A DNA stretch of 64,000 nt, taken from sequence record MT764206.1. One strand, given 5' to 3'. Positions 51,467 through 51,922 of this stretch are shown here, one piece after another; position 1 is the stretch's first letter; the number at the start of each line of letters is the position of its first letter. Source of the DNA: Escherichia phage JEP6. The position numbers and the translations under genes are program-made. The notes beneath the pieces were generated by a model, which saw nothing but the letters and a program-made list of their open reading frames with translations, did not search any database and was not told the origin of the DNA.

Positions 51467-51922
51467 TTATTTTAAATCATCTGCCCAATCGAGTTTAAGA
51501 GGCTCTTTGTATTCACGATCTAATACGACCGGAATTTGTACATCACCGCTAAATGATAAGGGCCCAACATTATAAGACAATGTTATATGCGGTGTGTAAT
51601 CATCAAAATCATGTGTAGCACCTAGTGCCCGCGCATACATGTGTCGACAGCGCAGATATTCAGAATCTAGCACAAGTACAAGAGTCGATCCATCTTGTGT
51701 TTTCCATACTTCTAAATGTCCAGAAGAAGCTACTTCAAAACTTCCGCTTGATGGAACATACGGAACATTTACTCTTGAATAACATATGGTCGAATGAATT
51801 TTTTCTCTAGGAACTGGATTAGGAACACGTAAAGAGCGCTGGAGTTCTTCCAGCGCATCAAGTGTTAATTCTGAAAACTTAGCTGCTACATAAAGACCCG
51901 TTGAAAAGTCTTTAAATTCCAT
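51467..51922 (-). CDS. 57B: 2H phosphoesterase at the 57B position (anti-CBASS Acb1-type cyclic-nucleotide nuclease)
   Basis: Two H-x-T/S motifs (HSTICY, HITLSY) about 65 aa apart; 151 aa. Confidence 0.75.

Follow-up and report, generated by a model that had tools for sequence, protein, structure and literature searches.

The open reading frame (ORF) of Escherichia phage JEP6 considered here is almost certainly acb1, the gene 57B of a T4-like Tequatrovirus, and its product acts, with a probability that we put at about 0.97, as a 2H phosphodiesterase cleaving the cyclic nucleotide signals of CBASS. The gene is of an already characterised T4 type and its product is the same as the reference enzyme, so that the finding is, in itself, already known. 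In the window, i.e., the whole 64-kb stretch of JEP6 DNA that was analysed, we establish the gene with its catalytic motifs, the identity of its product to T4 Acb1 and the genomic anatomy of the region, and nothing in the sequence speaks against the identification. The features are collected in Table 1, in which genes were assigned from the ORF list, Pfam, PHROGs and the T4 annotation, and all lie on the minus strand.

Table 1. Features of the acb1 region of Escherichia phage JEP6 (positions in the window).
Feature	Coordinates	Strand	Evidence
Gene 2	53564..54388	minus	
Gene 3	52927..53538	minus	
Gene 1, dNMP kinase	52164..52877	minus	Pfam DNMK, E=8e-104
57A, tail-fibre assembly chaperone, directly upstream of acb1	51922..52164	minus	Pfam GP57, E=2.6e-50
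57A/acb1 stop/start overlap TAATG	51920..51924	minus	sequence and T4 DNA alignment
acb1 (T4 gene 57B) CDS	51467..51922	minus	ORF list: ATG start, 151 aa, TAA stop
Catalytic motif 1, H43-S44-T45 (T4 H44/T46)	51788..51796	minus	CAT TCG ACC
Catalytic motif 2, H112-I113-T114 (T4 H113/T115)	51581..51589	minus	CAT ATA ACA
PeSL-type element 1, acb1-ipI spacer	51415..51460	minus	early promoter TTTACA-N17-TACTAT and hairpin, fold z=-2.2
ipI, internal protein I, directly downstream of acb1	51107..51394	minus	Pfam IPI_T4, E=5e-52, residues 20-95
PeSL-type element 2, between ipI and trna.4	51051..51094	minus	promoter and repeat scans, fold z=-3.3
trna.4, trna.3, trna.2	50173..51030	minus	
HNH endonuclease gene	49454..50086	minus	
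tRNA cluster	48164..49447	minus	

A sequence-only reading of this DNA had described, at 51467-51922, a product with tandem H-x-T/S motifs and interpreted the gene as the counterpart of T4 57B, encoding Acb1. The ORF, of 151 aa, was found at exactly these coordinates, both motifs were confirmed codon by codon on the raw sequence, and the interpretation is borne out by the comparison with the characterised T4 protein: in BLASTP against the T4 57B product (NC_000866; NP_049750.1 residues 2-152) 151 of 151 residues are identical, the HxT/HxT tetrad included, and the two genes differ by five synonymous and no non-synonymous substitutions. A lone H-x-T/S tripeptide is trivial by chance; it is the matches of the whole protein to profiles and structures that carry weight. 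In particular, the Pfam model PF23474 (Anti-CBASS protein Acb1) is matched end to end: residues 8-149 span the complete profile, positions 1-144 of 144, and the score is 202.7 bits where the curated cut-off is 27 (E=2.6e-60). No other Pfam family matches the product at E≤0.1. NCBIfam gives no match to the product because this library has no model for the Acb1 family (nor does it have one for IPI). The best hits among all PDB chains are 7T26/7T27, deposited as ‘Acb1’ (E=4e-62), i.e., the enzyme of Erwinia phage FBB1, which comes from a different phage and host, has both H-x-T motifs as in JEP6 and serves as the structural model of the mechanism. Identity to 7T26 is 68% (96 of 141 aligned residues, with a single one-residue gap), and this level of similarity to 7T26_A over 141 of the 151 residues predicts a compact 2H phosphoesterase fold for the JEP6 product. 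The alignment with characterised Acb1 proteins that had been proposed as a check thus gives 100% identity for T4 and 68% for FBB1. Two ORFs on the plus strand overlap acb1 (51625..51810, 61 aa; 51639..51782, 47 aa), and the minus-strand gene explains the region completely.

The active site was examined in an alignment of eight sequences from seven genera of the Straboviridae, with homologues from Karamvirus, Krischvirus, Tulanevirus, Lazarusvirus, Schizotequatrovirus and Pseudotevenvirus at 38-80% identity. The T4 tetrad H44, T46, H113 and T115 corresponds to H43, T45, H112 and T114 of JEP6, and these four residues, together with Y11, are invariant in all eight sequences; the loss of either catalytic histidine had been named as the observation that would overturn the assignment, and both H43 and H112 are present in every one of them. 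The base-stacking residues Y12, W74, F107 and W147 of T4 are all identical in JEP6 (Y11, W73, F106 and W146), E140 is the counterpart of the base-specific E141, and the lid, residues 144-151, is the same as in T4. The homologue of Cronobacter phage vB_CsaM_leE (Pseudotevenvirus; L007 2459-3082) is longer (207 aa), as its C-terminus continues for about 55 residues past the lid region, and its gene does not overlap 57A.

The biochemistry is that of the identical T4 protein: chemistry, substrates and the CBASS phenotype are taken from the literature. A 3′3′-cGAMP-degrading activity was purified from T4 lysate and traced to gene 57B, and the structures of FBB1 Acb1 revealed a compact 2H phosphoesterase fold in which the scissile phosphate lies above the HxT/HxT tetrad (H44, T46, H113, T115), the bases are stacked by Y12, W74, F107 and W147 and read specifically by E141, and the C-terminal residues 145-152 form a lid closing over the ligand (Hobbs et al., 2022; PMC9117128). 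Cleavage occurs 3′ of adenosine, in two metal-independent steps via a cyclic phosphate intermediate, and the H44A/H113A variant of T4 Acb1 is catalytically dead (PMC9117128). A T4 mutant deleted for acb1 grows normally in the absence of CBASS and shows a >300-fold loss on CBASS hosts, a CBASS-specific defect accompanied by the abolition of the cGAMP-cleaving activity; furthermore, an independent transposon screen found 57B to be conditionally essential on a CBASS host. The sequence-only reading had spoken of an ‘Acb1-type anti-CBASS nuclease’, in which the name Acb1 is right and the word ‘nuclease’ is loose, the enzyme being a 2H phosphodiesterase that opens cyclic di- and trinucleotides into linear products without need of a metal.

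By analogy, JEP6 would probably use Acb1 in the same way as T4. The enzyme, whose cistron comes last in the translationally coupled unit of gene 1, 57A and 57B, would act from the middle/late period of infection, binding the products of the host CBASS cyclases (3′3′-cGAMP, cUA, cAAA and cAAG) and cutting 3′ of adenosine by acid-base catalysis of the H-x-T/H-x-T tetrad, through a 2′,3′-cyclic phosphate intermediate, to a linear product. Once the signal is linearised, the CBASS effector would never be activated and the cell would not commit suicide before the phage cycle ends.

The names given to this protein in databases point elsewhere. PHROGs assigns the product to phrog_755, labelled ‘RNA ligase’, the RefSeq record of T4 uses the same name, and most of the deposited relatives, RefSeq T4 included, carry either ‘RNA ligase’ or ‘hypothetical protein’, with ‘Acb1’ in only one among the records listed. 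Taken literally, the label would make the product a LigT/ThpR-type RNA ligase or repair enzyme working on the 2′,3′-cyclic phosphate ends of RNA rather than on immune signals. Cellular LigT/ThpR 2′,5′-RNA ligases do have paired H-x-T/S motifs and a metal-independent chemistry proceeding via a 2′,3′-cyclic phosphate, and the 2H fold is common to LigT; however, these enzymes have other substrates and another biology, LigT-type Pfam models give nothing at E≤0.1 while the Acb1 model alone matches, and the identical T4 protein was isolated precisely through its cleavage of cGAMP, the activity being removed by a deletion whose defect is specific for CBASS. An RNA ligase is therefore a highly improbable reading; the relation to LigT is limited to fold and motif, and the label on 57B looks like a propagated misnomer.

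Within its own superfamily, the JEP6 enzyme is only marginally similar (E=0.004) to the divergent Acb1/viral 2H phosphodiesterases, such as PDB 9Q2G (‘Anti-CBASS protein Acb1’), which share the strategy of cleaving immune signals and are reported to differ in substrate specificity (Doherty et al., 2025, preprint). Outside of it, Acb2 (T4 vs.4), Apyc1 and the poxins likewise deplete the cyclic nucleotide immune signals of the host with unrelated folds: Acb2 is a sponge that sequesters the signal, whereas Acb1 cleaves it, and Apyc1, an MBL-fold anti-Pycsar nuclease, is metal-dependent and acts on cyclic mononucleotides, unlike Acb1.

T4 Acb1 (NP_049750.1) has the same 151 residues, genomic position, strand, neighbours, tetrad, stacking aromatics, E141 and lid as the JEP6 protein, and differs from it by one additional N-terminal Met in its annotation. 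In the T4 start region, ATGATGGAA, the 57A stop is TGA and 57B is annotated from the first ATG (152 aa); in JEP6, ATAATGGAA, the 57A stop is TAA and overlaps the sole ATG. A G-to-A change with respect to T4 (51920-51925) has converted ATGATG into ATAATG, with the loss of the initial Met annotated for T4 Acb1 and a switch of the 57A stop codon from TGA to TAA. As the first T4 Met is missing in JEP6, the residue numbers of JEP6 Acb1 are those of T4 minus one. The missing Met falls in an N-terminal stretch of about seven residues lying beyond both the Pfam domain and the crystallised construct; the FBB1 crystal chain begins at the residue aligned to JEP6 residue 8, and the short N-terminal extension is absent from the structure.

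The gene occupies the 57B position that had been proposed for it, with 57A directly upstream, ipI directly downstream and all three on the same strand, and the JEP6 order 3-1-57A-57B-ipI-trna.4 is that of T4. At the DNA level, the last 24 kb of the window align for 95% of their extent with the Tequatrovirus Salmonella phage SG1, at 97.9% identity, and the 2.2 kb around acb1 are 98.6% identical to several T4-like phages of E. coli. The stop codon of 57A and the start codon of acb1 overlap in the pentanucleotide TAATG, a classic translational-coupling arrangement, and the same TAATG, with an overlap of 1 nt, joins gene 1 to 57A. Both the order and the overlap extend well beyond JEP6: 3-1-57A-acb1 is found in seven of the seven Straboviridae genera inspected (Tequatrovirus and six others), and an overlap of 1 or 4 nt between 57A and acb1 is present in JEP6, in T4 and in four of the six other genera (Karamvirus, Tulanevirus, Lazarusvirus and Schizotequatrovirus). 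A candidate late promoter, TATAAATA, which corresponds to the late-promoter consensus, lies inside gene 1 (52520-52527); matches to it occur 13 times across the 64 kb against 11.3 expected, i.e., without any excess, and for this reason the copy in gene 1 is to be taken only as a candidate promoter for 57A and acb1.

On the other side of acb1 the anatomy is of a different kind. The product of ipI is identical to T4 IPI at 93 of 95 residues; IPI is a packaged and injected inhibitor of the GmrS/GmrD restriction enzyme, and its Pfam domain begins at residue 20, past the propeptide. In a repeat search, AAAGTTGTTTACA-N17-TACTAT turned up on either side of ipI (51425..51460 and 51059..51094), giving two copies where none was expected by chance. 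Each copy is accompanied by a hairpin in the same place, with a different stem sequence, and the promoter part of both elements fits the PST/T4 consensus for promoter/stem-loop (PeSL) elements, TTTACW-N17-TAYWAT, described for cassettes proposed to mediate modular shuffling in the hyperplastic regions of T4-like phages. A generic scan of 50800-53700 gave 11 sigma-70 promoters and one terminator against 9.8 and 1.4, respectively, in shuffled sequence, with no excess in either, and in that scan the two TG-extended TTTACA-N17-TACTAT sites were the only ones to stand out, solely through their repetition. The element in the spacer is predicted to provide ipI with its own early-type promoter and, since the gene is bracketed by two elements fitting the PeSL consensus, these data suggest that ipI is a cassette that can be swapped by recombination. 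The ipI slot is a documented site of exchange: in phage Bas37 it is filled by another capsid-targeted inhibitor, one of McrBC. Altogether, acb1 appears to close a conserved module of translationally coupled genes and to stand next to a swappable ipI cassette with its own promoter.

The sequence-only reading had seen in the stretch from ipI to 57B a counter-defence island, and the adjacency on which this view is founded is real: acb1 and ipI are two genes of proven anti-defence function, contiguous and on the same strand. The point is not new, as Hobbs et al. (2022; PMC9117128) had already noted the position of acb1 beside ipI and found it compatible with an anti-defence island. The stronger idea of a block acquired, kept and regulated as a unit we consider unlikely, as the counts of the two proteins and their neighbours differ. 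In fact, tblastn finds Acb1 homologues in 1470 phage records against 285 for IPI, and in 498 records, T6 among them, Acb1 is at least 99% identical, so that many phages have nearly the same Acb1 without IPI; the two genes are clustered but do not co-vary. In all seven genera acb1 stands behind 3-1-57A, but what comes after it varies: ipI in Tequatrovirus, Ip7 in a Karamvirus and unrelated small ORFs elsewhere. Moreover, it is only ipI that is bracketed by the two PeSL repeats and has an early-type promoter of its own, in a slot known for cassette exchange. In favour of an island it may be added that, in Escherichia phage Skers (Krischvirus; L003 2900-3103), dmd, the gene of an antitoxin that counters RnlA/LsoA, is located three genes downstream of acb1. 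The distribution and anatomy of the two genes rather suggest a conserved gene at the edge of the core, acb1, beside a swappable cassette than a co-inherited island. As a separate observation, the case of dmd in Skers suggests that in other genera, too, anti-defence genes may gather in the variable stretch that follows acb1.

By calling IPI ‘another’ injected anti-defence factor, the same reading had implied that Acb1 also travels in the capsid and enters the cell together with the DNA. This is correct for IPI only. A resemblance exists between the Acb1 N-terminus, MEFKDF, and the capsid-targeting MKTFKEF: a loose pattern, drawn post hoc, picks only Acb1 and three internal proteins among the 501 ORF candidates in the window, and in the alignment an N-terminus of the form M-x-x-F-x-D/E is found again in several genera. 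However, an unbiased comparison by BLOSUM62 with the signals of the three internal proteins gives Acb1 a score of 10.3, where the true internal proteins reach 24-28, and places it about 10th of 501, behind unrelated ORFs. The N-terminus does not match the internal-protein signal MK[TS][FY]x[EQ]F followed by an L/I-x-E cleavage site, and cleavage at the sole L-x-E protease-type site nearby (L24-E25-E26) would deprive the fold of its first strand. Published timing is also contrary, as acb1 transcription is classed as middle/late and the cGAMP-degrading activity is first seen about 15 min into T4 infection. Injection of Acb1, for which we see hardly any likelihood, was therefore rejected on the low score and on the timing, and we retain a protein synthesised in the infected cell. 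N-termini of the capsid-targeting type were observed on two more ORFs of the minus strand, at 46934-47407 (MKSYAQFLNE) and 42000-42302 (MKTYQEFITE), which presumably encode other internal proteins.

Further downstream, the tRNA cluster offers some observations of its own. The HNH endonuclease gene (210 aa; phrog_14736, E=6e-124) precisely replaces the T4 tRNA-Gln gene between tRNA-Leu and trna.2, and no tRNA-Gln was found by ARAGORN in the 64-kb window. At least 63 phage records match at least 80% of the length of this stretch, and the 15 listed (e.g., HY03, ACG-C40 and Ozark) match it over its entire length, with 98-99.6% identity. Between tRNA-Arg and a tRNA with a CAT anticodon lies a 221-aa ORF (48244-48909, minus strand), which we take, from its position and length, to match T4 segB, a GIY-YIG homing endonuclease gene; this putative segB and the HNH gene would be two homing-type endonuclease genes in one tRNA cluster.

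Fixed downstream of 57A, usually overlapping it, in seven genera infecting very different hosts, acb1 appears to behave as a core-edge gene rather than an accessory one. Such retention could be explained by a second role of Acb1 beyond the evasion of CBASS, either housekeeping or broader, e.g., on cA3 from type III CRISPR or on other cyclic or 2′,3′-cyclic-phosphate nucleotides, an idea that we regard as quite unlikely; if it were true, the coupling of acb1 to 57A would set a dose and a timing relevant to that role, and a corollary would be the restriction of JEP6, with its intact acb1, by Panoptes-type guard systems. The expression of Acb1 can, in fact, trigger guard systems: a type II Panoptes restricts Tevenvirinae with intact acb1 and the escapers mutate this gene, while with the type I Panoptes system tested the deletion of acb1 from T4 had no effect and the over-expression of Acb1 did.

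The gene should be annotated as acb1 (anti-CBASS phosphodiesterase) in place of ‘RNA ligase’ or ‘hypothetical protein’. The implications touch both the biology of the phage and phage therapy, and raise no new question. The acb1 gene of JEP6 is intact, which predicts resistance to many of the CBASS systems whose signals are cyclic di- or trinucleotides containing adenine; at the same time, as recent work on its relatives indicates, JEP6 may also be vulnerable to Panoptes, which senses the depletion of cyclic nucleotides.
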